From an uncultured bacterium (GTDB lineage: Bacteria; Acidobacteriota; Thermoanaerobaculia; Multivoradales; J023), in contig CALFAM010000153.1 in assembly GCA_937948815.1 (NCBI GenBank), positions 2,212-66,211 on the forward strand: DNA of 64,000 nt, written 5' to 3'. How positions within the stretch are numbered: position 1 is the stretch's first letter; each line of letters begins with the position of its first letter. The position numbers and the translations under genes are program-made. The notes under the pieces were generated by a model. That model was not told the DNA's origin. It did no database searches and saw nothing but the letters and a program-made list of their open reading frames with translations. Positions 14,601 through 48,536 of the stretch are shown here, one piece after another.

Positions 14601-17496
14601 GCAATCTCGGAGCACGGCTTGCCGAGCGGATCGGCGCGCGTGGCGGGCGGGCCTGGGTCGTCGAGCCCGGCCCCTATCGCGCCTCCGCCAGCGCGACGGA
14701 CGAACCGTGCCGCGTCGATCCGGAACGTCCCGACGACTTCCGCCGCCTGGCCCAGGACACCACAGAGGACGATCAGCCGCTCGCCGGCGTCGTCTACCTG
14801 TGGAGTCTCGACGGCGCCGAGGATCCGTTGTCGGGTGGCCTGCGAAGTACCGCCGGCCTGCTGCATGTGGCACAAGCCCTGGTCGACGACGCCGTGACGC
14901 GATCGCCGAGGCTGTGGATCCTGACCCGTGGCGCCGACGGGTCGTCTGGTGTCGGATTGTGCGGCGCGCCCCTGTGGGGTCTGGCGCGTACAGTCGGCCT
15001 CGAGCACCCCGAGCTGGCAACCACCTTGATCGATCTGGCGCCGCACGACGGTGAGGCTGCCTCGGGTCGGGCCGAAGAAGAAGCCGAGCACGTTTGCCGA
15101 GAGATGCTCTCAGGATCGGCAGAGCCCCAGGTCGCCTGGCGCGACGGCGTTCGCCGTGTGGCGCGCCTGGTCCGCGCCGAAGCGGCCGTGGATCCGGCAG
15201 GTGGCGGTGGCCGTGCACTGGCCCTGCCGGCCGATCGCGCCTGGCGGCTCGACGTCGACGAACGCGGCGCGCTCGATGCCCTGCGCGTGCGCCCGGTGCC
15301 GCGGACGGCACCGGCTGCCGGGGAGATCGAGATCGAAGTCCGCGCCGGGGGCCTCAACTTCCGCGACGTGCTCAACGTCCTCGGGCTCTATCCGGGCGAT
15401 GCCGGGTTGCTGGGCAACGAGTGTGTCGGTGAAGTGCGAGCCGTGGGTGCGGGTGTCGAGACCTTCTCTCCCGGCGATCGCGTCTTGGCGATTGCTTCAG
15501 GCGCGTTCGCCCGCTACGTGACCACATCGGCGAACCTGGCCGCGCGCGTGCCCGAGCGCCTGAGCGATGTCGAAGCGGCGACGCTCCCGATCACTTTCCT
15601 CACCGCATCCTACGCCCTCGAGCGCCTGGCGAAGATCCAGCCGGGCGAGCGGGTGCTGATCCACGCGGCTGCCGGCGGTGTCGGCATGGCAGCGGTTCAG
15701 ATCGCGCGCCGGGCCGGTGCCGAGATCTTCGCCACAGCAAGCCCAGGAAAGTGGTCGGTGCTCGAAGCCTGCGGTGTCCGTGCACCAATGAGCTCCCGGA
15801 CCCTCGATTTCGCAGAGCAGGTTCGCGCTCGCACGGGCGGCGAAGGCGTCGACGTGGTGCTGAACTCGTTGGCAGAGGACTTCATTCCCGAGAGTCTTTC
15901 CCTCGTGCGCGCAGGCGGACGGTTCCTGGAAATCGGGAAGCGCGGCATCTGGAGCTCCGAGAAGGTCGCCGCCGCCCATCCGGAGATCGGCTACCACGTG
16001 ATTGCGCTCGACGAGCTGTGTGAAGCGGAGCCGGAGACCATCCGCGACCAGCTTTCGGTGGTGATCGCAGCCTTCGAACACGGTGACTACGAGCCCCTTC
16101 CCCATCGCGTCTTCCCGGTCGCCCAGGCCGTGGAGGCCTTCCGCTACATGGCCCAGGCAAAGCATGTGGGCAAGGTCGTACTGACGCCGGAGGCTGCCGA
16201 CGGCACAACCGCCCTGACCGACGAGGCGACGCCCCTGCTGCGGCCGGAGGCGAGCTATTTGGTTACCGGGGCTAGCGGCGGCATCGGCGTTCGCCTTGCG
16301 GTGTGGCTGGTCGAACAGGGCGCGCGGCACCTGGTTCTGCTCAGCCGGCGCGCGCGTGGCGAATGGCCTGACGACGCGCTTCGAGCGGTCGACGCGCTCG
16401 CCGCCGATGTCGAGATCCGGGCCGGCGACGTGACCGATCGTGACCAGATGGCACGCCTGATGGCTGCGTTTGGCGACCGCCTGCCGCCGCTGCGTGGCGT
16501 GTTTCATGCTGCCGGCCTGCTCGACGATGGCGTGCTCACCGAACAGCGCTGGCCACGTTTCGCCGCCGTGCTTGCGCCCAAGGTGACCGGCGCCTGGCAC
16601 CTCCACCAGCTCACCCAAGCCCAGCCGCTCGACCACTTCGTGCTCTTCTCGTCCATCGCTTCGGTGCTCGGATCGCCGGGTCAGACGAGCTATGCGGCCG
16701 GCAACGCCTTTCTCGACGCCTTGGCGCGCCATCGCCATCTCGAGGGTTTGCCCGCCATGAGCATCAACTGGGGACCGTGGGATGAGGTCGGGATGACCGC
16801 TGCATGGCGGGCGCCAGACCAGGCACGTGCGGAAGCGCAAGGGATTCGGTTGCTGTCGCCAAGCGCCAACTTGGCGCAGCTCGGCACGCTGCTGGCCTCG
16901 GCGACAGCGGGCGGTTCAGATCCCTCGGCCTCATCGGCGCGGGCGCAGCACATGGTCGCCGACATCGACTGGACGCGCCTCGTCGGCCAACTTTTCCCAG
17001 CGGGCGCACCGCCCCTTCTTGCCGGACTGACCACGGTGGCTGTGCCCGGTGCGACGCCCGAGATCGTCCGCCAGCTTCGAGCCGCCCCCACGGGACGACG
17101 ACAGGACATGCTGGGCGATCATCTGCGAACCCAGATCGAGCGGGTGGTCGGCGGCGCGGTCGACCTGAGCGATCCCCGTCGCCCGCTCCAGGAGCTCGGT
17201 TTCGACTCCCTGATGGCCGTCGAGTTGCGCAATGTGTTGAGCAGCAGCCTGGGGCAGCCGCTGCCGGCGACGCTGTTGTTCAAATACCCGACCCTCGAGG
17301 CGATCACAGGCCATCTGCTCGCGTTGCTCGGTCTGGCCGAGCCGGAAGGATCCCGTGCGGCGTCCGAGCTCACGGAGCCGTGGTCCGCGGGAGACGGGCC
17401 GGCGGCCGCGGGCGACACCGATGACGATATCGACGAAGGGGAGCTCGCGGCCTTGCTGGCGGCGGAGCTGAGCGAGCTGAAATTGGAGAGGGGAGC

Positions 17497-17500
<4 letters not shown>
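8642..17500 (+). CDS. Type I PKS, loading plus module 1: FAAL-ACP-KS-AT-DH-ER-KR-ACP
   Basis: 2952-aa ORF. Motifs in order, with approximate nt positions:
- FAAL: [14 protein letters not shown] and FadD32-like [13 protein letters not shown] (8.7-10.4 kb)
- ACP: [11 protein letters not shown] (~10.62 kb)
- KS: DTACSSS / [11 protein letters not shown] / [10 protein letters not shown] (10.84-12.09 kb)
- AT: GHSVGEY plus HAFHS, malonyl type (12.43-13.48 kb)
- DH: [31 protein letters not shown] (13.5-14.4 kb)
- ER: [27 protein letters not shown] (15.2-16.2 kb)
- KR: [24 protein letters not shown] (16.25-16.8 kb)
- ACP: [11 protein letters not shown] (~17.2 kb)
The stop overlaps the next start (ATGA 17497-17500). 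Confidence 0.95.
12367..12404 (+). repeat. 15-bp in-frame tandem repeat (GTCTCGAGACGCTGG, about 2.5 copies) in the KS-AT linker
   Basis: Read directly: 12367-12381 and 12382-12396 are identical, and 12397-12404 is a partial third copy. It encodes [14 protein letters not shown] second small in-frame repeat (CGAACACCG x2 plus a partial copy, 37999-38020, encoding ANTANTAN) lies in the last PKS gene. Confidence 0.9.
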
Positions 17501-21693
<4,193 letters not shown>

Positions 21694-21706: not shown

Positions 21707-22135
21707 TCAAGGGCGATGGTCGGCAGTCGGTATCGTGTCCAGCCGCTCGCGAAGCCGGGCTTCTCCGCCCCCGGCCAAGCCGTTGATCCGGAATACCTCC
21801 TTGCCATCACGAAAGAGTGCGACCAGGGGGAGCGATCCTACCCGGAAGGCTTCGCGCATCGCTCGGTCCGGGAAGATGAAACGGTCGACGTCGATCTTGA
21901 CCACGCGGAGGCGGTCGGCATAGTCGCGAGCAACTTGTTGCATGGCCGGCAACTGCCGGCGGCAAGACATTCACCAGTCAGCGTAAAAATCGACAAGAAG
22001 AAATCCCTTCTGATTTGCCACGGCTTCCACCGCGACCTTCCGGTCGAGCTCGACGATGACGGTGTCTTCTGCCACGGGGGCCGAAGTAAAAAGGTTCAGA
22101 GAAGAAACGAGCAATACGGTAGCGATCAGATGCAC
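21707..22135 (-). CDS. Thioredoxin-fold selenoprotein (in-frame UGA = Sec at 21971-21973; active site W-U-M-S-C) with an N-terminal hydrophobic signal-like segment
   Basis: ORFs 21971-22195 and 21707-21970 share a frame and are separated only by TGA. The joined translation reads ...KGFLLVDFYADW-U-MSCRRQLPAMQQVARDYADRLRVVKIDVD...GSLPLVALFRDGKEVFRI. That is a complete Trx fold, including the cis-Pro region. GTG 22135 is preceded by GAGGAGG (22140-22146) and gives (M)HLIATVLLVSSLNLFTSAP. An alternative upstream start is ATG 22195. Confidence 0.8.
21938..21965 (-). promoter_or_regulatory. Candidate bacterial SECIS hairpin downstream of the thioredoxin UGA
   Basis: The minus-strand RNA reads UUGC-C-GCCGGC-AGUU-GCCGGC-CAU-GCAA. 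It has a 6-bp GC upper stem with a G/U-containing tetraloop and a 4-bp lower stem. The upper stem starts 10 nt after the UGA. Spacing and shape resemble the hairpin after the selD UGA in this window. Confidence 0.6.
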
Positions 22136-22507
22136 GGAACCTCCTCGTTGAAAGTTGTTATCGGTGTGCGTCAGAGAAGATGGGAGACGAAGCACGGAGG
22201 ATCTTCGAGCGAAGCATCACGCGCTGCGGCTGCGCTCGGAAATCCAGTAGGACCTTCTTTCCACGCGAAAGTTCTCGGAGGGCATCGAAAATCTTCTCGC
22301 GAGTGGCGTGGTTTTTCGATAGTGAGATGTGCTGTGGCGAACATGCGTTTATTGAAGGTTTTTCAATGGCCAAGCTGGGAAACCATCGATCAGGCTGATA
22401 GCATGGTAACAGTGTTCAATAGGGACGAGAGGGATCCGACTCGTCGATAAAACTTGCTGGTAACGATGCGGGGCCTCCTGGTCCTCGCGCACGGCGGAGG
22501 TGTGCCG

Positions 22508-25500
22508 ATGATTCGTTTCAGCATCATGTTTTTCTCCGCCAATGCGGAGACGCTTGGCGACGACAAATACCGCCTCGTCGTTGATGCTGCGACCTTCGCA
22601 GATCAGCACGCTTTCGAAGCTGTGTGGGTGCCCGAGCGGCACTTCGGCCTGTTGGGTGGTCTCTATCCCAACCCATCCGTGCTGCAGTCGGCATTGGCGG
22701 TCGCGACGGATCGGATTGCACTGCGTGCAGGGAGCGTCGTCTCGCCGCTGCACAACCCTATTCGAATCGCCGAAGAATGGTCCATGGTCGACAACCTCTC
22801 CGCGGGGCGTGTCGGACTCTCCTTTGCATCCGGCTGGAACCCTACTGATTTTGCACTGGCGCCAGAGCGCTACGAGCGGCGTCGCGATCTGCTGTACGAA
22901 GACCTCGAGACCGTGCAGCGTCTGTGGCGAGGGGAAGCCATCGAGGTCACCAAGGGCGGTGGCGCCTCGACCACGGTGGAGATCTATCCGAAGCCCGTTC
23001 AGGATGAGCTTCCCGTATGGATCACCGCAGCCCGCAGTCCGGAGACCTTCGAGCGTGCCGGCACCTTGGGCGTCAATGTTCTGACGCATCTCCTGGATCA
23101 AGACGTCAGTGGGTTGGCCGAGAAGATCACCATCTATCGCGACGCGCTGGCCGCCGCCGGGCACGATTCGCGTGCAGGCCGCGTCACAACAATGCTGCAT
23201 ACCTTCGTCCAGCCTGATGAGGCCGTTGCACGCGACGTCGCTCGGGATCCTTACTGTGCCTTCTTGAAGTCCAACATTCCACTGCTCAAGGGGCTTGCCG
23301 AGAGCCGTGATCAGACGGTCGATCTCGATGCGTTGTCTCCGGTCGAGCAGGACGACTTCGTACGGTTTCTTTATCAACGGTTCGCCAGTGCTCGAGCACT
23401 GATCGGGTCGCCTGAATCATGTTTGCCGCTGGTCGCGTCACTGCAAGAGATCGGTGTCGATGAGATCGCTTGTCTGCTCGACTTTGGACCCTCCAATGAC
23501 GACGTCATGTGCGGACTCCCGTCACTCCACCAACTTGCGACGGCGAGCGCTCTGGAGCTCAGAGCGGATGCTCCCTCCGAGGCGATGCCCGCTCCCGTGG
23601 TCGGTGTGACGAAGACCGTTCGCGACCGGTGCGATCGCGTTCTGGCGCCAGACGCATTCGCGCGGCAACTGGCTGCCGTAGGTCTCGAGTCGGCTCGCCA
23701 GATCCTGCCGAACATTGCGCTGAATGGGGCCGAGGCGCTGGCCGAGATCGAAGGCAGCCCGGTCCTGCATCGCCGGAAGCCGCTCGATCCCGCACTCCTC
23801 GAGACGTGTGCCGAGGCCGCACAACTCGTCGCTCCCGAGATCTTCGAGGATCGAGCTCCGCGCCTGGTTTCGCATATTGGGGCGCTCCGAGATGTGGTGC
23901 CGGATGCTGCCATTCGCTATCTACACGTTGTTCGCGTCGAGCCGGGGCAATTTCAGGTCGAGATCCGCTTTCTGGACGCGGCTGAGCGGGTGGTTGGGCG
24001 GCTGGGGTCGGTCCGCCTGCGCAAGCTCGGCAGGCCGCCGGTCGCTCTCATGGCGGCGGCGGGCGACGCCTCGAGCTTGTACTACGAGATGGCCTGGGAG
24101 GTCTGCCCCGCGGCTGCAGATCGAACATCGGTAGCTGCGACTGGCCGCGGCTGGTGCATCGTCGGTGACCGGAGTCCACTGGGTGCCAGCCTGGCGGAAG
24201 CGCTGCGGCGGACCGGTCGGAGTTGTCGCCTGATCGAGCCGGGATCGCTCCCGGAATTCTGGGCCCGACAGGATGCGGACCGCCTGGTGGGTCAGCTGTC
24301 GGAGGACGCCGAGAGCCCGAGCCATCTCGTCTACCTGCCGACCCTGGACGCACCAGTGGACCAGGCGACGAGTATCTCTTCGCTCCGACAGGCTCAGGCC
24401 ATCGGGCCGACAGCCGCGCTGCTGCTGATGCAAGCGCTGGTCGAGCGAGGAGGGGTCAAGGCGCCGAAGCTCTACCTGGTGACCCGCGCCGCGCATGCCG
24501 TCGGCGAGCAGAAGGTACCGCTTTCATCGATTCAGTCGACACTCTGGGGGCTCGGAAAGACCTGTGCCATGGAGCATCCGGAGATCTGGGGCGGTCTGGT
24601 CGACCTGGATCCGAAGGGCGACGAGCAGGCCAACACGGAGGCGCTGCTCGAAGCGCTCTTGGCGGCCGATGGCGAAGATCAGGTCGCCTTCCGCGGCGGG
24701 CAACGCTTCGTCGCACGGCTGGCGCGACGCCGTACGCCGCATCCTGCCGCACCGCCTGTCCGCCACGACGGCACCTATCTGGTCACCGGCGGCCTGTGGG
24801 GAGTCGGCCTGGAGGTATCCCGCTGGTTGCTCTCGAATGGCGCTGGTGCGCTGGTGCTCGTCGGCCGGAGTGCGCTGCCGCCCGAAGATACGTGGGACTC
24901 GCTCGAGCCAGGCACACGTGCTGCCGAGCTGGCCGGCGCGCTGCGAGGGCTGCGCAGCAACGGCGGCGACGTGCGCTACGAAGTGCTGGACGTCACCGAT
25001 GAGCCCGCGCTCGTCGCCCTGCTGGGGCAGTTGAGCGAGACAGAGAAGCCGCTGCGCGGCGTCGTGCACGCGGCCTCTGTGTGGCGGGACCGCAACGGCG
25101 AAACCCTGATACGCCCCATCCTGCAGAGCGACGCGGCCGCACTGGAGCTGGTGTTTCAGCCCAAAGTGCTCGGTACCTGGCTTCTCCACCAGCATACGAA
25201 GGAGCTTGCCCTCGATTTCTTCTGCCTGTTCTCCTCCGCGGCTTCGCTGACCGGTTCCGCGGGCCAAGGGAGCTACGCGGCGGCGAGTGGATTCTTGGAC
25301 ACCCTGGCGCACGAGCGTGCGCGCCTCGGGCTTCCCGCCCTGGCCATCAACCTCGGCCCGGTCTCTGACGCCGGCTTTGGTGCGACGAGTGAGGGGCTCA
25401 AGGTTCATACCTACTGGGAGTCCAACGGTCTGGCACGGGTGTCGCCGCCGCAGGTTCTGGAGGCGCTCGGTGCCTTGACCCAGGACGGTTCGCCGCAGGC

Positions 25501-26053
25501 GGGCTTCATGCGTTTCGACTGGCAGGCCATCGCACGCTTCTTCCCGGCGCTCTACGAAGCGCCTTGGGCGAGTCGGCTCGTCGAAGCCGTCGCGGTCACG
25601 GAGCAGCCCTCGGCGTTCCTCGGTGAGCTTCGCGCGGCGCCCGCTTCCGAGCAGATCAGCCTGGTGATTCGACAGCTTCAGCATCGTGTCGCGGAAGTGA
25701 TGGGGATGGAGGGACCCAAGCTGCCACCAACTCACAAGAAGCTGTTCGACATGGGGGTCGACTCCCTGATGTCGATTGAGCTGAAGGGGCGCCTGCAGGC
25801 GGATTTCGAGGCGGAGATTCCGATCACGGCGGTCTTCAACTATCCGACCATCGATGCGCTCGGGGGCTACGTGGCGAGCCAGGTTCTCGGGCTCGATCAG
25901 CCCGACGAGAGCGAAGGTGGCGTGGTGAGCGCTGCGGAGGACGTCGGGGCAGTGGACGCGGCGCTCAAACACGTCCATGAGATATCGGACGAGGAAGTCG
26001 ACCGATTGCTAGCAGCCAAGACCGCCGAGCTCACCCATCAATCGCAGCATTGA
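22508..26053 (+). CDS. Type I PKS, second part of module 2: luciferase-like monooxygenase (LLM) domain, C-terminal half of a degenerate DH-like fold, KR, ACP
   Basis: ATG 22508 has GGAGG 7 nt upstream; the ORF-track start 22454 is rejected.
- LLM: FSIMFFSA...AVWVPERHF...NPIRIAEEWSMVDNLSAGRVGLSFASGWNPTDF (natural-product LLM type, ~22.5-23.5 kb)
- ~23.6-24.04 kb: a DH second-hotdog-like segment with LDPALLETCAEAAQ in place of HPxLLDxxxQ
- KR: YLVTGGLWGVG, YAAASGFLD
- ACP: MGVDSLMSIEL. Confidence 0.9.
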   Translation: MIRFSIMFFSANAETLGDDKYRLVVDAATFADQHAFEAVWVPERHFGLLGGLYPNPSVLQSALAVATDRIALRAGSVVSPLHNPIRIAEEWSMVDNLSAGRVGLSFASGWNPTDFALAPERYERRRDLLYEDLETVQRLWRGEAIEVTKGGGASTTVEIYPKPVQDELPVWITAARSPETFERAGTLGVNVLTHLLDQDVSGLAEKITIYRDALAAAGHDSRAGRVTTMLHTFVQPDEAVARDVARDPYCAFLKSNIPLLKGLAESRDQTVDLDALSPVEQDDFVRFLYQRFASARALIGSPESCLPLVASLQEIGVDEIACLLDFGPSNDDVMCGLPSLHQLATASALELRADAPSEAMPAPVVGVTKTVRDRCDRVLAPDAFARQLAAVGLESARQILPNIALNGAEALAEIEGSPVLHRRKPLDPALLETCAEAAQLVAPEIFEDRAPRLVSHIGALRDVVPDAAIRYLHVVRVEPGQFQVEIRFLDAAERVVGRLGSVRLRKLGRPPVALMAAAGDASSLYYEMAWEVCPAAADRTSVAATGRGWCIVGDRSPLGASLAEALRRTGRSCRLIEPGSLPEFWARQDADRLVGQLSEDAESPSHLVYLPTLDAPVDQATSISSLRQAQAIGPTAALLLMQALVERGGVKAPKLYLVTRAAHAVGEQKVPLSSIQSTLWGLGKTCAMEHPEIWGGLVDLDPKGDEQANTEALLEALLAADGEDQVAFRGGQRFVARLARRRTPHPAAPPVRHDGTYLVTGGLWGVGLEVSRWLLSNGAGALVLVGRSALPPEDTWDSLEPGTRAAELAGALRGLRSNGGDVRYEVLDVTDEPALVALLGQLSETEKPLRGVVHAASVWRDRNGETLIRPILQSDAAALELVFQPKVLGTWLLHQHTKELALDFFCLFSSAASLTGSAGQGSYAAASGFLDTLAHERARLGLPALAINLGPVSDAGFGATSEGLKVHTYWESNGLARVSPPQVLEALGALTQDGSPQAGFMRFDWQAIARFFPALYEAPWASRLVEAVAVTEQPSAFLGELRAAPASEQISLVIRQLQHRVAEVMGMEGPKLPPTHKKLFDMGVDSLMSIELKGRLQADFEAEIPITAVFNYPTIDALGGYVASQVLGLDQPDESEGGVVSAAEDVGAVDAALKHVHEISDEEVDRLLAAKTAELTHQSQH

Positions 26054-26054
26054 C

Positions 26055-29000
26055 ATGAGCAGTACCGAAGCATTCGTACGCGAGCTCACGCAGCTTTCTC
26101 CCAAGCGGTTGCAGCTGCTTTGCCTCGAGATGCGAGAACAGCTCGACGCTGCGGATCGCGATCGGCGGGAACCGATCGCGATCGTCGGCCTCGGTTGCCG
26201 CTTCCCCGGCGGCGTTCGCGACTCCGAGTCGTTCTGGAAGCTGCTTGCCAATGGCGTGGATGCGACCGGCGAGGTTCCAGCCGACCGCTGGGACATGAAC
26301 GGTTTCTACGACACCGATCCGCTCGCGGTCGGCAAGATGTGTACGCGTCGTGGAGGCTTTCTGACCGATATCGATCAGTTTGATCCGACGTTCTTCGACA
26401 TCACGCCGCGAGAAGCCGAGAACATCGACCCGCAGCAACGTTTGCTTCTCGAGGTCACCTGGGAAGCGCTGGAGCACGCGGGTCAGGTGCCTTCGCAGTG
26501 GGGCAGTCGGCGCGTCGGTGTCTATGTCGGGATCACCCTCGAAGACTATGCGCGGGTGCAGATGCGCACCAACGACCCGACCTCGATCAATGCCTACACC
26601 GGCACGGGTATGACCACCAGCGTGGCGGCTGGTCGCCTCAGCTACGTCTTGGGATTCCAGGGACCGAGCTTTGCGCTGAACACCGCGTGCTCGTCGTCGT
26701 TGGTCACGGTTCATCTTGCCGCGCAGAGCCTGCGTCGCGGCGAATGCGAGATGGCGGTTGCCGGCGGCGTCAACCTCATGCTCTCTCCGGATTCGAGCAT
26801 TTTCCTGAGCGCGGCGCAGGCGCTCTCGCCGGACGGGCTGTGCAAAACCTTCGACGCCCGTGCCGATGGCTACTCGCGGGCCGAAGGCTGCGGCATGGTC
26901 GTGCTGAAGCGCCTTCGTGACGCGATCGCGGATGGTGATCGCGTGCTCGCGACGATTCGCGGTTCGGCGATCAACCACGACGGCCACAGCAGTGGGCTGA
27001 CCGTGCCGTACGGCCCTGCGCAGGTAGCGGTGATTCGGACTGCCCTCGAAGACGGCGGCGTGCGGCCGGACGAGATCAGCTACATCGAAGCGCACGGAAC
27101 GGGCACACCCCTCGGTGATCCGATCGAGGTGCAGTCCCTGGCCGAAGTCATGGGCGCGGGTCGCACGGCCGAGAATCCCCTCGTGCTCGGCTCGGTCAAG
27201 ACGAACTTCGGCCACGCTGAATCTGCGGCGGGAATTGCCGGCTTGATCAAAGTCGTTCTGGCCATGCAGCATCGCGAGCTGCCGCCTCACCTTCATTTCG
27301 AGCAACCCAATCCGCATCTTGGTCTGGATGAGGCGTCGTTTCGCATCCAGACGTCGCTCGCGCCCTGGCAGCCGGCGGGCGATCGCCGCTTGGCTGGCGT
27401 GAGCTCGTTTGGACTGAGTGGAACCAACGCTCATGTCGTGCTCGAAGAAGCGCCCGCGCGCCCTCGCCCGACGCGTGAGCGCCGCCGGCCCCAGCATCTC
27501 TTTCTCCTCTCCGCGGCCCGTCCCGAAATCTTGCCACGCATGGCGGAGCGTGCTGCCGACCACATCGAGCGTCACGACGAGATCGACGTCGGCGATGCCT
27601 GCTTCACGGCCAGCACCGGGCGCACCCACTTCGATCACCGTTTCGCTGCGGCAGTGAGCTCGCGCGATGCGTTGGTCCAGAGCCTTCGCCGTGTCGCGGC
27701 TGGAGAACCTGCGCCGCGGACCTGGCATCGTGCGGTCGACGCGCTCGAGGCTCCGCGAATCGCCTTCCTGTTCACCGGCCAGGGCGCCCAGCGCAAGGAC
27801 ATGGGGCGCCAGCTCTTCGACACGCAGCCGACGTTTCGGCGCACACTCGAGCGTTGCGACGAGATCCTGTCGCCGCTGTTGGGCCAGTCGATGCTGTCGG
27901 TGCTGTATGCGGCCGATGGGGGCGCGGATGAAGGTGCCAGCCGAATCCACGAGACAGCGTTGGCACAGCCGGCGCTCTTTGCCGTCGAATATGCCCTTGC
28001 CGAGATGCTCGGGTCTTGGGGGGTGAGGCCAGCTGCGCTCCTGGGCCACAGTGTTGGCGAGTATGTCGCCGCCTGTGTGGCAGGTGTTTTTTCGCTCGAA
28101 GATGCCTTGCGCATCCTTGCCGAACGTGGGCGCTTGATGCAGGCCCTCGAGGGCGACGGCGCGATGGTCAATGTCTTCGTACCGGAGGCGACGGCGCGGC
28201 AAGCGATCGAAGGCCACCGAGAGCATGTGTCGATTGCGGCGATCAACGGTCCGGCGAGCACGGTGCTCTCCGGTGACCGCGCGGTACTCCAGGCAGTCGT
28301 CGGGGCGTTTGGTGATCGCCATCGCTGGCTCGAGGTCTCCCACGCCTTTCATTCACCTCAGGTCGAGCCGATGCTCGACGCGTTCGAGCGGCTGCTTGCC
28401 ACCATCGACCTGTCGGCTCCGGCCATTCCCCTGATCTCCAACCTCACCGGCCGCGTGGTCGAGCCCGAAGAGATCGTTCAGCCGTCGTATTGGCGTCAGC
28501 ACGTCCGTTCGCCCGTGCGCTTCATGGACGGCATCGCGAGCTTGCATGTCCACCGCTGCACGACCTTTCTCGAGCTGGGCCCGAGCCCGGTCTTGCTCGG
28601 GTTGGGTCGACGGTGCCCGGGCGCGGATGCGGCGGCCTGGCTACCGACCTTGCGCCCGGCCAAGACCGACTGGGATCAGATACTCGAAAGCGTCGCTCAG
28701 CTGCACACTGCCGGTGTCGAGATCGACTGGCAAGCGTTCGATCGTGACGAACCGAGTCGCCGGGTTTCGTTGCCGTCCTACCCATGGAAGCGGCGTCGGT
28801 TTTGGTTGCGCGGCGCCGTCCCCATTTCTCGCCTCGAAATCGGGATGGAGCCGGCCCTGGATCACGCACGCGCCCATCCGGACGAACCGTCAACCGAAAC
28901 GGCGTCGGGCGAGCATTCCGAGCCGGCACCGAGCTTGTACTACGAGATCGTCTGGGAAAAGTCTGAGCTCCCAGCGCACGGTCAAGGGCTGCTGGAGGGA

Positions 29001-30935
29001 CCTTCGTGGCTCGTTCTCGGCGACGCGGACGGCCTCGGGCCGAAGCTCGTGAAGGCGCTCGACGCTCAGGGCGCTCACGCCGTCTGCGAGCCTCTCTTCG
29101 AGGGGACAACTAACGGCGCCTTGACGACGCGGCAAGCGCTCGAACAGCATCTCCGCGCCTCGGTCGAACGCCATGTTCGACCCTCCGAGAGCGGGTCCCG
29201 TTGCCAGCATGTCGTCTATCTCGGCGCACTGGAGGCAAGTCTCAGCCCGCCGTCCCGCACGGCGTCGGTGGCATCGGGAGATCCCTACGCGGCGCTGGCA
29301 GGCGCGATCGTGCTGCTGCAGCGTCTCGCCGCGGAACGTCTCGACCCCGCGCCACGCCTGTGGGTCGTGACATCTGGCGCCCAGGCGGTTGCCGCCGAAG
29401 CTCGCGGCCTCGAGCCACTCCAGTCGACGTTGTGGGGCCTGGGCCGCACCTGTGCCTTCGAACGCCCCGATCTCTGGGGCGGTCTCGTCGACCTGGATCC
29501 CGTGGAGCGTGGCACCGGTGCGGCGCAGCGCCTGGCAGCATCCTTACGGGCGGGTGACAAGGAAGATCAGGTCGGATTCAGGGGGGACGAGCGCTACGTC
29601 GCGCGTGTCCTTCGCGCCCCGATGCCCGAGCCCGAAGCGGAAGAGAGCAAAGCCGAGTCGCTCGAGATTCGGTCCGATGGCGATTACCTGATCACCGGCG
29701 GGCTCAAAGGTCTCGGATACGAGGTCGCACGCTGGCTGGTCGACCGCGGGGCGCGTTTCCTCACCCTGCTCGGCCGAAGCAAGCTGCCAGAACGGAGTAC
29801 CTGGGATCGTTTGACTGACGCGAACCCACGCTGGGTCGATGCGATCGGCCGTATTCGCGCACTCGAGGAAGCAGGTGCCAGTGTCGAGTATGCCTCTGTC
29901 GATATTGGCGACGAGGCTCGGGTTCGCGCCTACCTTGCCCAGCGCGCTCACGACGGCCGGCCGCCCGTGCGAGGCGTCGTGCATGCTGCGGCCGTGTGGG
30001 CGGATGCCGAGGGCCACGGTGTCATCGGACCGTTGGAGCAGATTCAACTGTCCTCGGTCGATGATGTGCTCTCGCCCAAAGTCGAAGGTGGCCGCATTCT
30101 GGAGCGGCTACTGGACCCGAAAGAGGTCGACTTCTTCCTGCTCTTCTCGTCTGTCGCGGCGCTGATGAGCTCCTTCGGGCAGGGTGTTTATGCCGCGGCC
30201 AATGCCTACCTGGACACACTGGCCTGGGATCTCGGTTCCCGCCCCGGTTGCAAGGCCCTGGCGATCAACTTGGGGCCGGTCGCGGACGCTGGGTTTGGGA
30301 TGTCCGAAGAAGGCCTTCGGATCAACAAGGACTTCGAACGACTCGGCATCCGCACCTTGCCGGTCGCGCGCGTGATGGCGGCTCTCGATCATCTTTTCGC
30401 GCAGGACGTGCCGCAGCTCGCGATGGTCGATCTGGAGTGGCAACGCATCCAGCAGGTCTACGGAGGCATGCTCCGCTCACCCTTGACGCGTCATCTCCTA
30501 CCTTCCCAGCCCGATCGTGCCGAAGGCCCTGGACTCCTCGAGCAGCTCGACGAGCGGGAGCCCACGGAGCAGCATGAGTTGGTGTCGACCTGGCTTCAAG
30601 GCGAGATCGTCGTGCTGATGGGTTTCGACGAGTCCGAGACGCCGACCAAGGACCAAGGCTTGTTCAAGATCGGCATGGACTCGCTCTTGGCCGTCGAGCT
30701 GAAGCATCGCATTCGCAACGAGCTCAGGCGGGATTTTCCGATCACGGCTGTCTTCGATCACCCAACCATCGACGAGCTCACATCCTTCCTGCTCATCGAT
30801 GTGCTCGGCCTCGAACCGCAAGGGAACCACGGTGACGCTGGCATCCCAGGTGACGTGGACATCCTGGATCAGATCGACCAGCTGTCCGAGGAAGAGGCAG
30901 AAGCGCTGCTCGCTCAGCAAACCGGAAGCCCTTGA
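26055..30935 (+). CDS. Type I PKS module 3: KS-AT-KR-ACP
   Basis: 1626-aa ORF starting 1 nt after the previous stop.
- KS: NTACSSS / [11 protein letters not shown] / [10 protein letters not shown]
- AT: GHSVGEY plus HAFHS
- KR: [20 protein letters not shown] (no LDD motif)
- ACP: [11 protein letters not shown]
There is a helical N-terminal docking-like segment. Confidence 0.95.
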
Positions 30936-42759: not shown

Positions 42760-44277
42760 GTGGCGAAGCTCGGCGTCGAACGAACTGCCGTTGCTGCCAC
42801 AATGGTCTTTGGCGTGAGCCCGATCCTCGGGGTCGCGGCCGCGGTTTCGACAGATGGGCCGCTCTCCGGTGTCGCGCTGGCCCTGCGTGCGGCAGCCTGT
42901 GGGCTGGCGGCGGTGGTTGTCGTACGGCTGATCGCTCGACGGTTGCCCGAGGGCCTCGATGGGCTGGCGCGGCAAGCGCCCAAGAAGTGCGCACTCTGGC
43001 TCTTGCTGGCATTGGTTGCGACTCTGCAGATCGCCCGCGTCAGTGTGTTCATGGTGGATCCCGCCGCGAGGTGGGCGTCGGCCTTCCCGCCTAGCGAGGA
43101 GGCGGCTCGGCACACCTGCCTGAGTGCGTACGTTTATGCGGCCGAGCTCCATCGGCGTGGAGACGACGCTGCGGTCTACCAACGCGCGACCTATCGTGAC
43201 CCGACCGCCCAGACCGACATCGGCAACCTTGCACCGTATCTGGGCGATGCCTTCCTGTATCCAGCGCCGTTCCTGGTGGTCGCGCGTGGTCTCCTGGCAG
43301 TCAGTCCAGATTTTCTTGTCATTCGTAGCGTCTGGTTCGTCTTGAATATCTTGGTATTCATGGCAGGTGCTCTGGCGCTGGCAGCGTGGATCGGTGGGCG
43401 TACGGGCCTCCGCGTGGGTTTCTTGCTTCCGGCCGCGCTCATGGCCATTCCGACGCTTCTCAATTTCCAGTTTGGGCAAGTCCATCTGGTGACCCTCGTC
43501 GGCGCCACGCTGGCAATGGCCTTGTTCGCGACGCGGTACGACAAACTGGGCGGTCTCTTGCTGGGCGCGGCGATTCTCGTCAAAGTGTTTCCCGCGATTT
43601 TGTTGCTCTATCTGGCGTTCCAGCGCCGCTGGCGACCGGTGATCGCCACCATCGCCATGCTTGTCGTGTTGACCGCCACGAGCATGGCAATTCTGGGTAC
43701 AGAGCTGTTCACCCATTACGTGTATCGCGCCGTCGACATTGGCATGGGTGCCGGTATTCCTTCGACGTCGGTGACGGCCTTGGCCAATGACATCGGAATC
43801 TTCCGGGTCGCCGAGAAGCTCGCATTCCTGGGTGTCGTGCAGCAGGGCAACGGGTTGGGCTCGGCGCTTCTGTGGGCCTACACGGCAGTCCTCGGCGTGA
43901 TGGCCTGGTGCGCGGCAAAGCCGCGTGGGCGGCAGGCCGCAAGCCGACACGAACGCGCCCTGATCTGGCTCGGCCTCTTGGCGCTGGCTTCGCTTCGCGC
44001 GCCTGTAGCGCCTTCGGCCTATATCGCCACCAGCGGAATCTGGATTCTGAGCTTGCTCGCGGCCCGAGTCGGGCCGCGTCGGCTCAGTTTGATGGTGGCG
44101 GCGGGCGCTGCTTGGCTGCTGCTGCAAGGGTTGCCGGGCGCGCCATCCCCCAAGCTTCTGATCATGCTCTCGTTCTTGCCACAGCTCGTCTTCGTAGGGG
44201 TCGCGATGGTTGCGATCTTCATCCTCAGCCAAGCGCGATCAGAAACGGCTTCCTTGGGCTTGAATCAATCGGTTTGA
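42760..44277 (+). CDS. Polytopic membrane protein, DUF2029 / GT87-like (GT-C fold) putative glycosyltransferase
   Basis: About 12 hydrophobic segments. The first-loop region reads ...VYQRATYRD...LGDAFLYPAPFLVVARGL, resembling the DUF2029 F-x-Y-P-P pattern. Start is GTG 42760 or ATG 42802. The 42424 start is rejected because it overlaps LysR. Confidence 0.55.
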   Translation: MAKLGVERTAVAATMVFGVSPILGVAAAVSTDGPLSGVALALRAAACGLAAVVVVRLIARRLPEGLDGLARQAPKKCALWLLLALVATLQIARVSVFMVDPAARWASAFPPSEEAARHTCLSAYVYAAELHRRGDDAAVYQRATYRDPTAQTDIGNLAPYLGDAFLYPAPFLVVARGLLAVSPDFLVIRSVWFVLNILVFMAGALALAAWIGGRTGLRVGFLLPAALMAIPTLLNFQFGQVHLVTLVGATLAMALFATRYDKLGGLLLGAAILVKVFPAILLLYLAFQRRWRPVIATIAMLVVLTATSMAILGTELFTHYVYRAVDIGMGAGIPSTSVTALANDIGIFRVAEKLAFLGVVQQGNGLGSALLWAYTAVLGVMAWCAAKPRGRQAASRHERALIWLGLLALASLRAPVAPSAYIATSGIWILSLLAARVGPRRLSLMVAAGAAWLLLQGLPGAPSPKLLIMLSFLPQLVFVGVAMVAIFILSQARSETASLGLNQSV

Positions 44278-45683
44278 TCGGCCGAGGCTTGAAGATCGCG
44301 CAGACGTTGGGCGATCATGGCGACTTCATCGTCATGAATGGTTCGGGCGTCGAGTGTCAAGGCGTCGTCGACGCGACGCATGACGATGGCGGGGTCGCCG
44401 AGGCGCATTTTGCTCGCCAGCGATTCGATTGACCCTTGGTGCGGTGTCAGTTTCACGCCCCAGCTATCCAGCTCGCGTGTCGGCAGCGCGCCGCTTCCTG
44501 CCTGAGAACGACACGGAACGAGTGCAGAATCGACATGCTCGATTGGCGCGAGCTGCTCCGCCAGGCGAGCTGCGCGCTTCTTGATGGTCGCGGCGTCAGC
44601 GAGCAGATTTCGCAAGGTCGGAATCTCCGCAAGTGCGCGCGATGTTCCTTGCCGGTAGAGGTCGAGTGTGGCTTCCAGGGCCGTGTAGATGAATCGGCTC
44701 GGCCGCATGGCGCGGAACATCTGGTGGTCGCGACAGCGTCCGACGGCTTCGCGACTACCTGCGATGATTCCAGCTTGCGGCCCGCCGAGAAGTTTGTCGC
44801 CGCTGAAGCAAACCAGATCGACGCCTGCTGTGAGGGCTGCTTGTACGGAAGGCTCGTCATGGATTCCATGCTCGGCAAGCTCGATCAAGCTACCCGAGCC
44901 CATGTCATAAACCACGGGCACGCCCAGCGGTCGTGCGATCGCAACCATTTCCTCGAGTGAAACTTCCTTGGTAAAGCCTTGCACGCGATAGTTCGATGTG
45001 TGCACCTTGAGAATCATGCCGGTCTCTTCATTCAGACGGTTGGCATAATCTCGAACATGGGTGCGGTTGGTGGTGCCAACTTCGACCAGGATTGCGCCGC
45101 TCTCGCGCATGATGTCCGGGACTCGGTATGAGCCACCGATCTCGACCAGCTCACCCCTTGACACCAGAACGGGCTTTTCGCGGGTGAGGGCGGCCAAAAT
45201 GATGAGCGTGGCAGCAGCGTTGTTGTTGACGATCGTTGCCGCTTCGCATCCGGTCAGCTCACGAATAAGTGCTGCACAACCTTCGTCGCGACCACCGCGT
45301 TGCCCCGTTTCGAGATCGAGCTCCAGTTTCTGGGAGCGGATCGATAGCTCGGCAACGCGTTTGGCGGCGACGTCAGCAAGCGGGGAACGTCCCAAGCCCG
45401 TGTGCATCACGACGCCGGTCGCATTGATCACATGCCGGTAGTACGGACGTCGGCGCTCGGCTAATCCTTGCTCGAGGGCACTGGCAACGCGATCAACCGC
45501 CAACTCCTCTTCGCAAAGATCGCCGCGGATTCCCCGGGCGCGCAGCTGGTCGAGAATCACACGGGTTTCAGCGACGATCTCGCGGTGTGTGAATGACTCG
45601 GAGAGCTTCTCGATCCTGGGGTGTGCGAGGAGCAGATCAGTCTTCGGAAGTTTTCGAAGCAGCGCGTGAGCGGGGGTATTCAT
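44265..45683 (-). CDS. selA: L-seryl-tRNA(Sec) selenium transferase
   Basis: 472 aa. SelA-typical N-terminus LLRKLPKTDLLL...; the PLP-domain segments NNNAAATLIILAAL and FSGDKLLGGPQAGII contain the PLP lysine context. The gene is divergent from tRNA-Sec. Confidence 0.92.
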   Translation of the reverse strand: MNTPAHALLRKLPKTDLLLAHPRIEKLSESFTHREIVAETRVILDQLRARGIRGDLCEEELAVDRVASALEQGLAERRRPYYRHVINATGVVMHTGLGRSPLADVAAKRVAELSIRSQKLELDLETGQRGGRDEGCAALIRELTGCEAATIVNNNAAATLIILAALTREKPVLVSRGELVEIGGSYRVPDIMRESGAILVEVGTTNRTHVRDYANRLNEETGMILKVHTSNYRVQGFTKEVSLEEMVAIARPLGVPVVYDMGSGSLIELAEHGIHDEPSVQAALTAGVDLVCFSGDKLLGGPQAGIIAGSREAVGRCRDHQMFRAMRPSRFIYTALEATLDLYRQGTSRALAEIPTLRNLLADAATIKKRAARLAEQLAPIEHVDSALVPCRSQAGSGALPTRELDSWGVKLTPHQGSIESLASKMRLGDPAIVMRRVDDALTLDARTIHDDEVAMIAQRLRDLQASADQTD

Positions 45684-45835
45684 GATGGTTGAATTCTAGT
45701 GTAGGGGCCGGAAGCAGGCAATTCGTTTGACTTCCTGTCGAGCAGGAGCTCAGGAATGGTGAGCGAAGCTTCGGTCGATCGCTACGGCGAAGATTTCTGA
45801 TGACGAAAAGTTCTTGTTAATCGGTAGAGATCAGC

Positions 45836-45864
45836 TTGTTGCGTGGTTGTTTTCTCACTATAAT
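45836..45864 (+). promoter_or_regulatory. Candidate sigma70-type promoter of tRNA-Sec
   Basis: TTGTTG (45836-45841), 17-nt spacer, TATAAT (45859-45864). The mature tRNA 5' end lies 10 nt downstream. Confidence 0.55.
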
Positions 45865-45873
45865 GATCAGGAC

Positions 45874-45972
45874 GGAAGCGTCAGAAAGTCGGTGCTTTCC
45901 GCGGTCTTCAAAACCGTTGTCTCGGGCCTCTGCGGTCCGGGGGGTGGGTTCGATTCCCATACGCTTCCGCCA
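45874..45972 (+). tRNA. selC: tRNA-Sec (anticodon UCA)
   Basis: Hand-folded, 99 nt:
- 8-bp acceptor stem GGAAGCGU/ACGCUUCC
- 6-bp D stem GAAAGU/GCUUUC with a 4-nt loop
- anticodon loop CU-UCA-AA
- long variable arm CGGGCC-UCUGC-GGUCCG
- T arm GUGGG-UUCGAUU-CCCAU
- discriminator G and encoded CCA
It is close in layout to E. coli selC. Confidence 0.93.
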
Positions 45973-46196: not shown

Positions 46197-47261
46197 ATGT
46201 CTCTTCTGGGTCGTTTCAAGAAGAATACGCTCACCAGTCTGTCCAAAACCTGCGGTTGAGCGGCCAAACTGAGCCCGGTCGGGCTCGGCGAGCTGCTACA
46301 GAAACTGCCCAAGAACGAGGATGCCAATCTCCTCGTTGGCTTCAGCACCAGCGATGATGCAGCCGTCTATCGGGTGTCCGATACGCTTGCCATGGTCATG
46401 ACCGCGGACATCATCACGCCACCGGTGGATGACCCGGTCATCTTTGGCCAGATTGCCGCCGCCAACTCGCTGAGCGATGTCTATGCGATGGGCGGCCGGC
46501 CGGTGGCATGTCTCAATCTGGTGGGTTTTCCAGCCGACAAGCTCGGGCCGGAAGTCCTGGAAGGCATGATCGCTGGCGCGCTTAGCAAGATCACCGAGGC
46601 CGGCGCAGTCCTGGCGGGCGGACATACGATCGAAGATGACGAACCCAAATTTGGGCTGTCGGTCAACGGTCTCGTTCATCCCGATCAGTACTGGCCGAAC
46701 GCTGGGGCGCGTCCCGGTGACGGGTTGATCCTGACGAAGCCCATTGGCAGCGGCGTGCTCTTCAACGCGAACCTGAAGGGTGGTGTGTCGGATGAAGCGT
46801 TGGCATTTTGCATCGAGACGCTGACGACGCTCAACAAGGTTGCGGCGGAAACCCTGGCGGACTTTGATGTCCATGCCGCGACGGACGTCACCGGTTTTGG
46901 CCTGGCCGGTCACGGTCTCGAGATGGCCAAAGGCTCCGATGTGACGATCCGCCTCGCGGTCGCCGATCTTCCGATCATGCCAGAGGCTCTCGAAGCCTAC
47001 GAAAGTGGCGTCACCACTGGTGTGAATGCAAGCGTGTGGCAGCTCGTCGGCGAGCACCTTACCTTCGAGCGTGACTTCGCCCATGCGCAAAAGGAAATTC
47101 TCGTGGATCCCCAGACGAGCGGCGGACTGCTCGTGTCGATCCCGGGAGATCAGATCGAGGCGGCGCTCGCCGCGCTTCACGAGGCTGGCGTGGCGGCTGC
47201 CGCGAAAGTCGGTGTGGTCGAAGCCAAGACGGCGGACCAGACGTTCTTGGTCGCCTATTGA
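46197..47261 (+). CDS. selD: Selenide, water dikinase (selenophosphate synthetase), Sec-containing form with in-frame UGA at 46257-46259
   Basis: ATG 46197 has GGAG 8 nt upstream. Translation reads MSLLGRFKKNTLTSLSKTCG-U-AAKLSPVGLGELLQKLP, continuing into the tracked ORF (46374-47261) with SDVYAMGGRP and AGGHTIEDDEPKFGLSV. The UGA sits at the position of the catalytic Cys/Sec in the glycine-rich N-terminal loop. Confidence 0.9.
46271..46286 (+). promoter_or_regulatory. Candidate bacterial SECIS hairpin of selD
   Basis: GAGCCC-GGUC-GGGCUC starts 11 nt after the UGA. The GGUC apical loop matches the loop sequence of the E. coli fdhF SECIS as I recall it. Flanking GCC/GGC can extend the stem. 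Confidence 0.6.
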
Positions 47262-48393: not shown

Positions 48394-48536
48394 CGCCTGC
48401 GCCCGAAACCTCTCGGCGAGCGGACGAGTCTCTCGGCGGTTGGCATGCACCGGCCCGCGAGCGGGTAGCCTCAAGTGCGTGCTTGTCGCCGGGAGGGTCA
48501 AGTTTGTTAGACGAGACATCGATCGGAGGGGAGATC

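Follow-up and report, generated by a model that had tools for sequence, protein, structure and literature searches.

A predicted selenocysteine-containing, probably exported thioredoxin-fold protein encoded within a polyketide-synthase cluster of an uncultured bacterium

A Sec-containing thioredoxin, WP_010956703.1 (Trx, PF00085, UxxC), is among the experimentally verified bacterial selenoproteins (PMC13188914, PMC9312934). Surveys have also predicted 'Trx-like 1' (COG0526, UxxC) as well as Trx-like, thiol:disulfide-interchange, DsbA-like and TlpA-family selenoproteins (PMC2398784, PMC1088965, PMC13188914), and DsbA-like, DsbG-like, TlpA-family and thiol:disulfide-interchange selenoproteins have been tabulated (PMC13188914, PMC9312934). 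Signal peptides are present in the bacterial selenoproteins SaoB, SaoX and SaoC (bioRxiv 10.1101/2022.07.06.499078). Here we analyse a locus in a 64-kb stretch of DNA from an uncultured bacterium (the window, 64,000 nucleotides in all), which on sequence comparison is very probably one gene for a Sec-containing thioredoxin-fold thiol/selenol:disulfide oxidoreductase. The gene lies on the strand opposite to the surrounding polyketide-synthase (PKS) cluster.

A single conserved frame across an in-frame UGA

A first-pass annotation of the window had proposed that two minus-strand open reading frames share one frame and are split by a TGA alone. The coordinates (21971-22195 and 21707-21970) and the translation bear this out, with the TGA at 21973-21971 as the sole separator and a read-through product containing ...FLLVDFYADW-U-MSCRRQLP.... 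The features of the gene are as follows.

21707..22135, minus strand: complete predicted selenoprotein gene, 142 codons including Sec55, supported by dN/dS on both sides of the TGA
22135-22133, minus strand: GTG start, preceded by a Shine-Dalgarno sequence
21725..22060, minus strand: thioredoxin-fold domain, residues about 26-137 (Pfam PF00085, TIGR01068, PDB 4wxt, homolog alignment)
21971..21973, minus strand: in-frame UGA, predicted Sec55, which opens the U-M-S-C redox motif, kept in 7/7 distinct family sequences
21964-21962, minus strand: resolving Cys58
21709-21707, minus strand: terminal stop TGA

With U written as C, the Pfam Thioredoxin profile PF00085 matches residues 36-120 (56.8 bits against a gathering threshold of 23.5 bits, E=2.5e-15), thereby covering the fold, and solved thioredoxins align to residues 26-137 (PDB 4wxt, E=2.4e-16). 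Both alignments cross the UGA junction uninterrupted, in agreement with the earlier suggestion that the read-through product is a thioredoxin fold. W-U-M-S-C, at the N-terminal end of helix 1, aligns to WCGPC, whose first Cys is matched by U, and the SLP motif (Pro103, 21829-21827) aligns to the I-P-T cis-Pro motif, so that the active site and the cis-Pro of a thioredoxin are both in place. The homolog alignment also reveals a family-specific insertion, DVDR-FIFP-DR, in the domain. The product does not qualify as a canonical TrxA: it scores 66.7 bits with TIGR01068 (equivalog cut-off 96.8 bits), has U-M-S-C rather than CGPC and carries a hydrophobic N-terminal extension. GenBank-type gene calls retain the C-terminal 87-aa fragment alone (P0001), the public-database product of the locus is a 'thioredoxin' fragment of 87 aa (or 78 aa), and the same mis-annotation as a fragment recurs in 7/7 family clusters.

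The locus was assessed against the criteria for bacterial selenoproteins of Zhang, Fomenko & Gladyshev (2005; PMC1088965) and the bSECIS model (PMC13188914). That set asks for at least two Cys homologs at the TGA, and in our alignment, which is clean at this position, the U column is Cys in 12/12 full-length homologs; together with the solved thioredoxins, these place the TGA exactly at the first Cys of WCxxC, where the first-pass annotation had put it. A second requirement of the set is a TGA shared by two or more different sequences whose flanks on either side are conserved as coding, and we found seven: the window gene and six distinct relatives from metagenomes (L001, L002, L165, L166, L167 and L168; 36-82% protein identity). 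All seven keep the TGA in frame, none of them ending at this position, and all retain DW-UGA-x-x-C-RRQLP. The composite motif TGGTGA-N6-TGYCGCCGGCAGTTGCCGG occurs at 8/8 family loci and at 0/160 generic thioredoxin loci. With dS at 0.7-2.6, dN/dS is 0.07-0.14 upstream and 0.07-0.17 downstream of the TGA; both halves of the gene are under strong purifying selection in a single frame.

Every member of the narrow family seen is the Sec form and no Cys-form member was detected (the representatives search used the 87-aa fragment as query). Genome and metagenome scans with a three-ortholog alignment yielded no new orthologs; they returned generic WCxxC thioredoxins only, at up to 47% identity, because the peptide patterns DFYADWC and VDFYADW are common. 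The family is tiny and apparently all-Sec.

The hairpin downstream of the UGA and the Sec-decoding genes

The first-pass annotation had also noted a GC hairpin ten nucleotides downstream of the UGA, likened it to the hairpin after the selD UGA, and placed selA and tRNA-Sec in the window. These elements were located as listed below.

21945..21964, minus strand: predicted bacterial SECIS element, UGCCGCCGGCAGUUGCCGGC, invariant over 20 nt, identified by conservation and bSECIS rules
21960-21955, 21954-21951 and 21950-21945, minus strand: 5′ arm, loop AGUU and 3′ arm of the hairpin
44265..45683, minus strand: selA, L-seryl-tRNA(Sec) selenium transferase (Pfam SelA, E=1.7e-131)
45874..45972, plus strand: tRNA-Sec (selC), anticodon UCA (ARAGORN; Rfam RF01852, 67.2 bits)
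46197..47261, plus strand: selD, selenophosphate synthetase, itself a selenoprotein gene (UGA at 46257-46259, KTCG-U-AAKLSP)
46269-46288, plus strand: SECIS-type hairpin of selD, CUGAGCCC-GGUC-GGGCUCGG, 17 nt from UGA to loop, -13.9 kcal/mol

The published bSECIS model sets four constraints, on loop, stem, spacing and energy (PMC13188914, Fig. 2). The hairpin GCCGGC-AGUU-GCCGGC (21960-21945) conforms to all four: its 4-nt loop has G at position 2 followed by U, its stem is 6 bp, it begins 10 nt after the UGA with 16 nt from UGA to loop, and its folding energy is -11.7 kcal/mol. The proposed extension of the stem by UUGC/GCAA is not conserved in orthologs, and we rejected it. Since the window is GC-rich and hairpins after 8% of all its 1424 TGA triplets pass the bSECIS rules, the hairpin alone is weak evidence, and its fold z-scores are modest (-0.8 to -2.7). 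The strong evidence for it, as far as sequences can tell, is conservation across relatives. Among amino-acid-invariant degenerate codons in the seven sequences, 5/6 columns in the hairpin use a single codon versus 0/17 elsewhere (Fisher p=1.8e-4), and the 20-nt stretch that is the longest invariant run among the three close orthologs falls on the hairpin. Thus, an RNA-level constraint sits directly after the TGA. Because the stem is invariant across the family sequences, with no compensatory changes, the constraint is not proven to act on structure rather than on sequence. The SECIS sequence is identical throughout the family, down to roughly 40% protein identity, and appears to force the peptide motif C-R-R-Q-L-P, in place of which the Cys homologs have C-K-x-M-A-P. 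A search of Rfam at the locus returned no RNA family at either the gathering or a permissive threshold; to our knowledge, Rfam does not cover bacterial SECIS elements as one family.

The Sec-decoding trait is represented in the 64-kb window by selA, selC and selD, 22-25 kb from the thioredoxin gene, while selB was not found within it. The nearest matches of the window SelA are in Acidobacteriota and Thermoanaerobaculia MAGs, with 57-59% identity only. The likeness of the two hairpins holds. The selD hairpin starts 9 nt after its UGA if the stem is taken as 8 bp and 11 nt after it if the 6-bp core is counted, and both genes combine the UGA with a short G+C-rich stem 9-11 nt on, a 4-nt loop with GU and 16-17 nt from UGA to loop. 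The proteins are unrelated and the stems differ (GAGCCC/GGGCUC in selD versus GCCGGC/GCCGGC), and both hairpins are presumably read by the same SelB.

Three readings that dispense with Sec have to be weighed against this evidence. The TGA lies one base from TGC and gene callers break the locus into two small ORFs, as would be expected if a TGC-to-TGA nonsense mutation had left a pseudogene or if the TGA were a sequencing or assembly error. However, the TGA recurs in seven distinct sequences from independent assemblies, which at 36-82% identity differ too much to be copies of one contaminant; both halves remain under purifying selection (dN/dS 0.07-0.17) at saturated dS, and the RNA-level constraint directly follows the TGA. 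To judge from these sequences, conservation effectively refutes the pseudogene or error reading, to which we assign almost no probability. A pair of small genes, one for a secreted peptide of 54 aa that stops at the TGA and one for a thioredoxin fragment of 87 aa starting from ATG 21970, would account for the ATG that directly follows the TGA in the window and in L001, and for the 87-aa product present in databases. In 5/7 sequences (L002, L165, L166, L167 and L168), however, the next codon is GGG or GGC and there is no ATG, GTG or TTG directly there, so restart at this point is impossible; the next start is at least 9 codons on, or absent. Moreover, neither piece is a complete fold, the fragment lacking strand beta1, helix alpha1 and the nucleophile, and the Pfam and PDB alignments are continuous over the junction. 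The next codon in these five sequences and the dN/dS of 0.07-0.17 on both sides speak against two separate functional genes, the outcome that would have told against the first-pass reading, and the two-gene arrangement is very improbable.

The third possibility is that the UGA is read without Sec, as Trp, Gly or Cys, through an alternative code or a near-cognate suppressor. UGA is reassigned in some uncultured bacterial lineages, and the absence of selB from the 64-kb window would fit such a reading. Against it, TGA ends 17/25 well-supported window genes, the selenoprotein gene among them, and is thus otherwise the main stop codon of the host; besides the one at issue, an internal TGA occurs in selD alone, at its canonical Sec codon; the window encodes both tRNA-Sec and selA; and reassignment would not need a conserved SECIS-type hairpin. 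Non-Sec decoding of this UGA is therefore highly unlikely.

The N-terminus and the PKS setting

Features upstream of the redox motif that bear on the start and the cellular location of the product are the following.

22140..22146, minus strand: Shine-Dalgarno sequence GAGGAGG, 4 nt before the GTG, with GAGGAG and AAGGAG as equivalents before GTG in L001 and L002
22070..22135, minus strand: hydrophobic N-terminal segment, (M)HLIATVLLVSSLNLFTSAPVA, probable Sec-type signal peptide or membrane anchor (heuristic only)
22136..22453, no strand assigned: divergent intergenic region of low GC (0.52), flanked by the thioredoxin gene and the next PKS gene, presumably with the promoters of both
22454-26053, plus strand: next PKS gene (LLM-KR-ACP)

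The GAGGAGG noted earlier upstream of GTG 22135 is indeed there (22146-22140). A start at GTG 22195 was rejected, as it has no RBS and the region upstream is poorly conserved. From GTG 22135 the N-terminus is hydrophobic and, judged heuristically, signal-like, as had been suggested, with a candidate cleavage site at TSA|PV or directly before ED. By the same heuristic, a signal-like segment with an h-region and a -3/-1 site is found in all family members with complete N-termini; in L002, L165 and L168 it is a canonical signal peptide, its n-region charged and its site of the AxA|acidic type, while in the window protein and in L001, from the RBS-supported start, the n-region has no positive charge. 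Tat export was rejected: L002 has T-R-R-I-L-A, and the twin arginine is missing in the other members. The protein is probably exported. The first-pass annotation regarded export as unusual for a bacterial selenoprotein, which overstates the case, since extracytoplasmic examples are documented, among them the Sao proteins and the DsbA-like, DsbG-like, TlpA-family and thiol:disulfide-interchange selenoproteins.

The product could instead be a true selenoprotein that stays in the cytoplasm and works as an ordinary thioredoxin, with thioredoxin reductase as its reductant, its hydrophobic N-terminus being untranslated, mis-assigned or a peripheral helix that is not cleaved. Among families, its best matches are to cytoplasmic thioredoxins (TIGR01068, TrxA, TrxC), the window n-region from GTG 22135 has no net positive charge, and the experimentally characterised Sec-thioredoxin (Trx, PF00085, UxxC) is a conventional thioredoxin (PMC13188914, PMC9312934). 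Yet a conserved RBS and GTG precede the hydrophobic segment, which no relative with a complete 5′ end lacks and which in three of them has a textbook n-h-c layout and AxA before an acidic residue; in addition, the TIGR01068 score falls below the equivalog cut-off, and the active site reads U-[MG]-[SIR]-C where TrxA has CGPC. A cytoplasmic location is thus unlikely, though it is the most plausible of the alternatives.

In the exported-selenoprotein reading that we favour, translation would begin at GTG 22135, the hairpin at 21960-21945 would recruit SelB with Sec-tRNA(Sec) at UGA 21973-21971, and Sec would be inserted as the attacking residue of the U-x-x-C redox centre before the ribosome moves on to the real stop at 21707. 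The hydrophobic N-terminus would most likely lead the protein to the Sec translocon, and the mature domain would work outside the cytoplasm, either in the periplasm or membrane-anchored. There it may cycle between selenol/thiol and selenenylsulfide, reducing or isomerising disulfides in envelope substrates, with other oxidised sulfur or selenium species in these substrates as alternative targets.

The description of the locus as an AT-rich island between PKS genes was partly right: GC is 0.60 in the thioredoxin gene and 0.52 in the upstream intergenic region, compared with 0.65-0.68 in the flanking PKS genes. A promoter and terminator scan of the region found nothing beyond chance and no convincing sigma-70 site. 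The same position in a split PKS module is kept in three orthologous, diverged clusters of one clade. The four more distant members adjoin MMPL/TetR/methyltransferase, F420H2-quinone reductase or PQQ dehydrogenase genes, not PKS genes, so the consistent co-occurrence across the protein family that would mark a PKS accessory enzyme was not found. The PKS location is not shared by the family as a whole and, because one clade only sits in a PKS cluster, a role in polyketide synthesis is unproven; the case for a functional link is so far synteny in that clade. A selenoprotein gene fixed in a split PKS module across three diverged clusters nevertheless raises the hypothesis of such a link. In its fullest form, the Sec-thioredoxin would be a working part of a polyketide-lipid pathway, kept at saturated synonymous divergence between the halves of the split PKS module, and could act outside the cytoplasm on the exported product or its carrier, in redox tailoring or in self-protection; the family would be obligately Sec-dependent and exported, with no Cys-form orthologs and with RRQLP dictated by the SECIS RNA. 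We consider this combined proposal speculative and doubtful. If true, this would be the first time that a PKS biosynthetic gene cluster is assigned a selenoenzyme.

Comparison with described systems

Since UxxC thioredoxin-like and exported bacterial selenoproteins are both known already, the window gene adds one more. What it contributes is a thioredoxin subfamily from uncultured lineages that is small, apparently all-Sec and probably exported, a clear case of protein sequence constrained by an RNA signal, and a consequence for annotation: a real gene is mis-annotated as a fragment throughout the family clusters (n=7).

Like the verified Sec-thioredoxin WP_010956703.1, with which it was compared by description only, the window protein belongs to PF00085, has Sec at the first Cys of CxxC and has a SECIS within the coding sequence just after the UGA. 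It differs in having a signal-like N-terminal segment, two short insertions (FIFP and GG), a TIGR01068 score under the equivalog cut-off, and, across its family, U-[MG]-[SIR]-C followed by RRQLP with no GP-type centre. With 'Trx-like 1' and the Trx-like selenoproteins from surveys, several families of which are extracytoplasmic oxidoreductases, it shares the thioredoxin fold, UxxC and Sec/Cys pairs for which the wider superfamily is rich in Cys homologs. Unlike those, the window family has no detected Cys form and its SECIS sequence is identical family-wide; none of the selenoprotein-specific NCBIfam models scored above cut-off for the window protein.

In layout the window protein resembles TlpA, ResA, CcmG/DsbE and the C-terminal domain of DsbD, with a CxxC-type centre in a thioredoxin fold behind a signal peptide or membrane anchor, here a probable one. 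Profile matches to DsbD, TlpA, ResA and DsbE are weak (24-31 bits versus cut-offs of 123-330), and a DsbD/CcdA partner was not found within the 64-kb window. In contrast to these proteins, the window protein has its best match in classical thioredoxin, and its predicted nucleophile is Sec, not Cys.

The interrupted thioredoxin frame and its Sec/Cys pair

On the minus strand, GTG 22135 opens a frame that ends at the stop 21709-21707 and is interrupted once, by TGA 21973-21971; reading through this TGA yields (M)HLIATVLLVSSLNLFTSAPVAEDTVIVELDRKVAVEAVANQKGFLLVDFYADW-U-MSCRRQLPAMQQVARDYADRLRVVKIDVDRFIFPDRAMREAFRVGSLPLVALFRDGKEVFRINGLAGGGEARLRERLDTIPTADHRP. The gene lies within a modular type I PKS locus, and the features are as follows.

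8642-17500: FAAL-ACP-KS-AT-DH-ER-KR-ACP PKS gene
17497-21693, plus strand: KS-AT-DH PKS gene
21960-21945, minus strand: hairpin GCCGGC-AGUU-GCCGGC, starting 10 nt past the UGA
22146-22140, minus strand: GAGGAGG, 4 nt ahead of GTG 22135
22454-26053, plus strand: luciferase-like monooxygenase (LLM)-KR-ACP PKS gene
26055-30935: KS-AT-KR-ACP PKS gene
30939-38930, plus strand: KS-AT-(LPG_synthase_C-like)-DH-KR-ACP PKS gene
44265-45683: selA
45874-45972: tRNA-Sec
46197-47261, plus strand: selD, with UGA 46257-46259 and hairpin 46269-46288

The thioredoxin gene is tail-to-tail with the KS-AT-DH gene (gap, 13 nt) and head-to-head with the LLM-KR-ACP gene, with a 318-bp intergenic region (GC 0.52) between them. 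Since the gene itself has a GC content of 0.60 compared to 0.65–0.68 in the PKS genes, the 'AT-rich island' of the first-pass annotation is real but mild, and its centre is the intergenic region.

Fold comparisons were run with U written as C in the read-through protein. Pfam Thioredoxin (PF00085) matched across the UGA junction (E=2.5e-15, residues 36-120), and the solved thioredoxin 4wxt aligned over residues 26-137 (E=2.4e-16) with U at the first Cys of WCGPC, a motif that also occupies the U column in 12 of the 12 aligned full-length homologs. The cis-Pro motif is retained as S-L-P. NCBIfam TIGR01068 matched at 66.7 bits, under its equivalog cut-off of 96.8 bits, and none of the selenoprotein-specific NCBIfam models matched the protein at its cut-off. 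The earlier proposals of one frame interrupted only by TGA, and of U at the nucleophilic Cys position of a thioredoxin fold, are thus borne out; on the suggested check against orthologs, full-length homologs have Cys at this column and the family retains the TGA.

Conservation of the UGA and of the candidate SECIS hairpin

For close relatives, the protein database holds truncated products only: P0001 (87 aa) matches the post-UGA fragment of the window exactly, and P0002 and P0003 are 80% and 74% identical to it. The corresponding contigs (L001; L002 and L003; L004, identical to the window) have the same layout between the same two PKS genes, and all four keep the in-frame TGA. Identity to the window is 80% for the thioredoxin and 79–80% for the flanking PKS proteins in L001, and 73% and 68–69%, respectively, in L002. 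Such similar values indicate that the clusters are orthologs from related species, in which the small thioredoxin gene has been conserved as strongly as the PKS genes beside it.

When the 87-aa fragment was run exhaustively with HMMER against 1.84 billion representatives, no further clusters of at least 50% identity emerged, but short proteins starting just past the CxxC position did. Their contigs are L165, L166 and L167, to which a later profile search added L168. In each of these four, an in-frame TGA has DW before it and G-[I/S/R]-C-RRQLP after it. When a profile of the post-UGA fragments was searched against 5.8 billion proteins, seven clusters scored at least 97 bits, all of them 71–87 aa long, and the next scores (53 bits) were those of ordinary full-length thioredoxins. 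This drop indicates that the family is small and that all detected members are of the Sec form; a word-indexed search of 5.8 billion proteins, within its limits, showed no Cys-form ortholog.

The bacterial SECIS model specifies a loop of 3–9 nt with G within its first two positions, often followed by G or U, a stem of 4–16 bp, a UGA-to-loop distance of 16–37 nt and an MFE <= -7.5 kcal/mol (PMC13188914, Fig. 2). Both the thioredoxin candidate (loop AGUU, 6-bp stem, 16 nt, -11.7 kcal/mol) and the selD element (loop GGUC, 8-bp stem, 17 nt, -13.9 kcal/mol) fit, consistent with the resemblance noted in the first-pass annotation. Taken alone, this fit is weak evidence, because 8% of all 1424 window TGAs also pass these rules and the fold z-scores of the thioredoxin hairpin are just -0.8 to -2.7; its strength comes from conservation. 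The longest invariant run in the three close orthologs (20 nt) is located at the hairpin, and a 5-bp stem core plus loop is identical in the seven distinct family sequences (36–82% identity). Among amino-acid-invariant degenerate columns (n=7 sequences), a single codon is used in five of six inside the hairpin (CGC, CGG, CAG, TTG, CCG) versus 0 of 17 outside (Fisher p=1.8e-4). The composite motif TGGTGA-N6-TGYCGCCGGCAGTTGCCGG is present in all 8 family loci but absent from all 160 generic thioredoxin loci retrieved. There are no compensatory stem changes among the seven sequences, since the stem never varies, and no Rfam family matched the hairpin locus. After the active site (21945-21964, minus strand, and the same site in L001-L004 and L165-L168), C-R-R-Q-L-P is invariant in the Sec family, where Cys homologs have C-K-x-M-A-P; the sequences suggest that the RNA signal shapes the protein here. 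The rare Leu codon TTG is used in 7/7 sequences.

Decoding machinery and alternative readings

In agreement with the first-pass annotation, selA and tRNA-Sec accompany a UGA-bearing selD. They form one cluster (44265-47261) without selB, which was not found within the 64-kb window. SelD is a selenoprotein too (…KTCG-U-AAKLSP…), with a SECIS-type hairpin CUGAGCCC-GGUC-GGGCUCGG; the ORF listing has it only from 46374 onward, and its annotation is probably truncated as well. The window SelA is closest to those of Acidobacteriota and Thermoanaerobaculia MAGs (57–59% identity). The genes directly downstream of selD (47026-51119, plus strand) encode an ABC transporter of phosphonate type, with substrate-binding protein, ATPase and permeases.

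General reassignment of UGA is excluded, because TGA terminates 17 of the 25 supported window genes and is internal in thioredoxin and selD only. A pseudogene is ruled out by the conserved TGA and by purifying selection on both halves, with dN/dS (NG86) of 0.07–0.14 upstream of the TGA and 0.07–0.17 downstream (dS 0.7–2.6). Orthologs that end at the TGA, or two separate genes, had been named as refuting outcomes; the TGA is instead conserved in frame, and the codon after it is GGG in L002 and L003, so no second gene could start there. Very probably the locus is a genuine thioredoxin-fold gene with Sec decoding at its UGA, and by published criteria (PMC1088965) it ranks as a probable new selenoprotein gene.

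Genomic setting, export and relation to known selenoproteins

A PKS module looks split into KS-AT-DH and (LLM)-KR-ACP halves, with the thioredoxin gene at the split on the opposite strand, as also in L001, L002 and L003. The PKS genes are followed by a fatty-acid hydroxylase, an LCM methyltransferase and a GT87 glycosyltransferase. The gene at 30939-38930 (plus strand) carries a phosphatidylglycerol lysyltransferase C-terminal domain (PF09924, E=4.8e-16, residues 969-1233) between AT and DH, an unusual insertion in a modular PKS. Further along, TetR and HlyD-type genes precede an uninterrupted 1478-aa ORF (55694-60130, plus strand) with AcrB-type RND (PF00873, residues 7-997) and outer-membrane efflux (PF02321, 1271-1447) domains, either a true pump–outer-membrane-factor fusion or an assembly-joined pair.

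The four distant members have the following gene orders.

L165: MMPL, TetR, trx, class-I methyltransferase (stop/start overlap with trx)
L166: trx, F420H2-dependent quinone reductase, methyltransferase
L167: PQQ dehydrogenase, trx
L168: TetR, unknown, trx

None has PKS neighbours, and the PKS association is thus clade-specific synteny, not a family trait; a function of the thioredoxin in the polyketide pathway is very doubtful. Shortly downstream of trx, two of these loci have a class-I SAM methyltransferase (Methyltransf_11/25; L165 3261-3881, L166 776-1108), and TetR lies upstream in L165 and L168. The L165, L166 and L168 loci may be small redox or detoxification operons unrelated to PKS.

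Wherever the 5' end is complete, family members read from their RBS-supported starts have a hydrophobic N-terminal stretch, after which come a -3/-1 site and an acidic residue. Maximal 10-residue Kyte-Doolittle values of the family N-termini are 2.3–3.1 (E. coli TrxA, 1.6; DsbA, 2.7). Textbook signal peptides are seen in L002 (MTVSTRLRTTRRILATFFLLSLTLALA↓AE), L165 (…GLVALRGPAARA↓ED) and L168 (…LGLPGPVPAAA↓DD); the n-regions of the window and L001 are very short and uncharged. In L167 a signal-like ORF (MRHVRFAPGFALVIGILALACALP…, 1814-1997) and the UGA-bearing thioredoxin domain are offset by one base, through either an indel in the assembly or decay of this copy. Judged by this heuristic, the thioredoxin is probably exported or membrane-anchored, the likeliest reading. 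Its most defensible function would be the generic one of an extracytoplasmic selenol/thiol:disulfide oxidoreductase. That an exported selenoprotein would be unusual was an overstatement: SaoB, SaoX and SaoC are known precedents (bioRxiv 10.1101/2022.07.06.499078), and DsbA-like, DsbG-like, TlpA-family and thiol:disulfide-interchange selenoproteins have been listed (PMC13188914, PMC9312934).

UxxC thioredoxin (PF00085) is among the experimentally verified bacterial selenoproteins (PMC13188914, PMC9312934), and Trx-like proteins with a UxxC motif rank with the most abundant of those predicted (PMC2398784, PMC13188914, PMC9312934), with 321 Sec forms versus 7,880 Cys homologs of 'Trx-like 1' in GOS (PMC2398784). 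While UxxC thioredoxin selenoproteins are already known, the present family forms a distinct, rare, seemingly all-Sec subfamily, predicted to be exported. Unlike the aligned Cys homologs, which have WCGPC and C-K-x-M-A-P, it has U-x-x-C followed by RRQLP.
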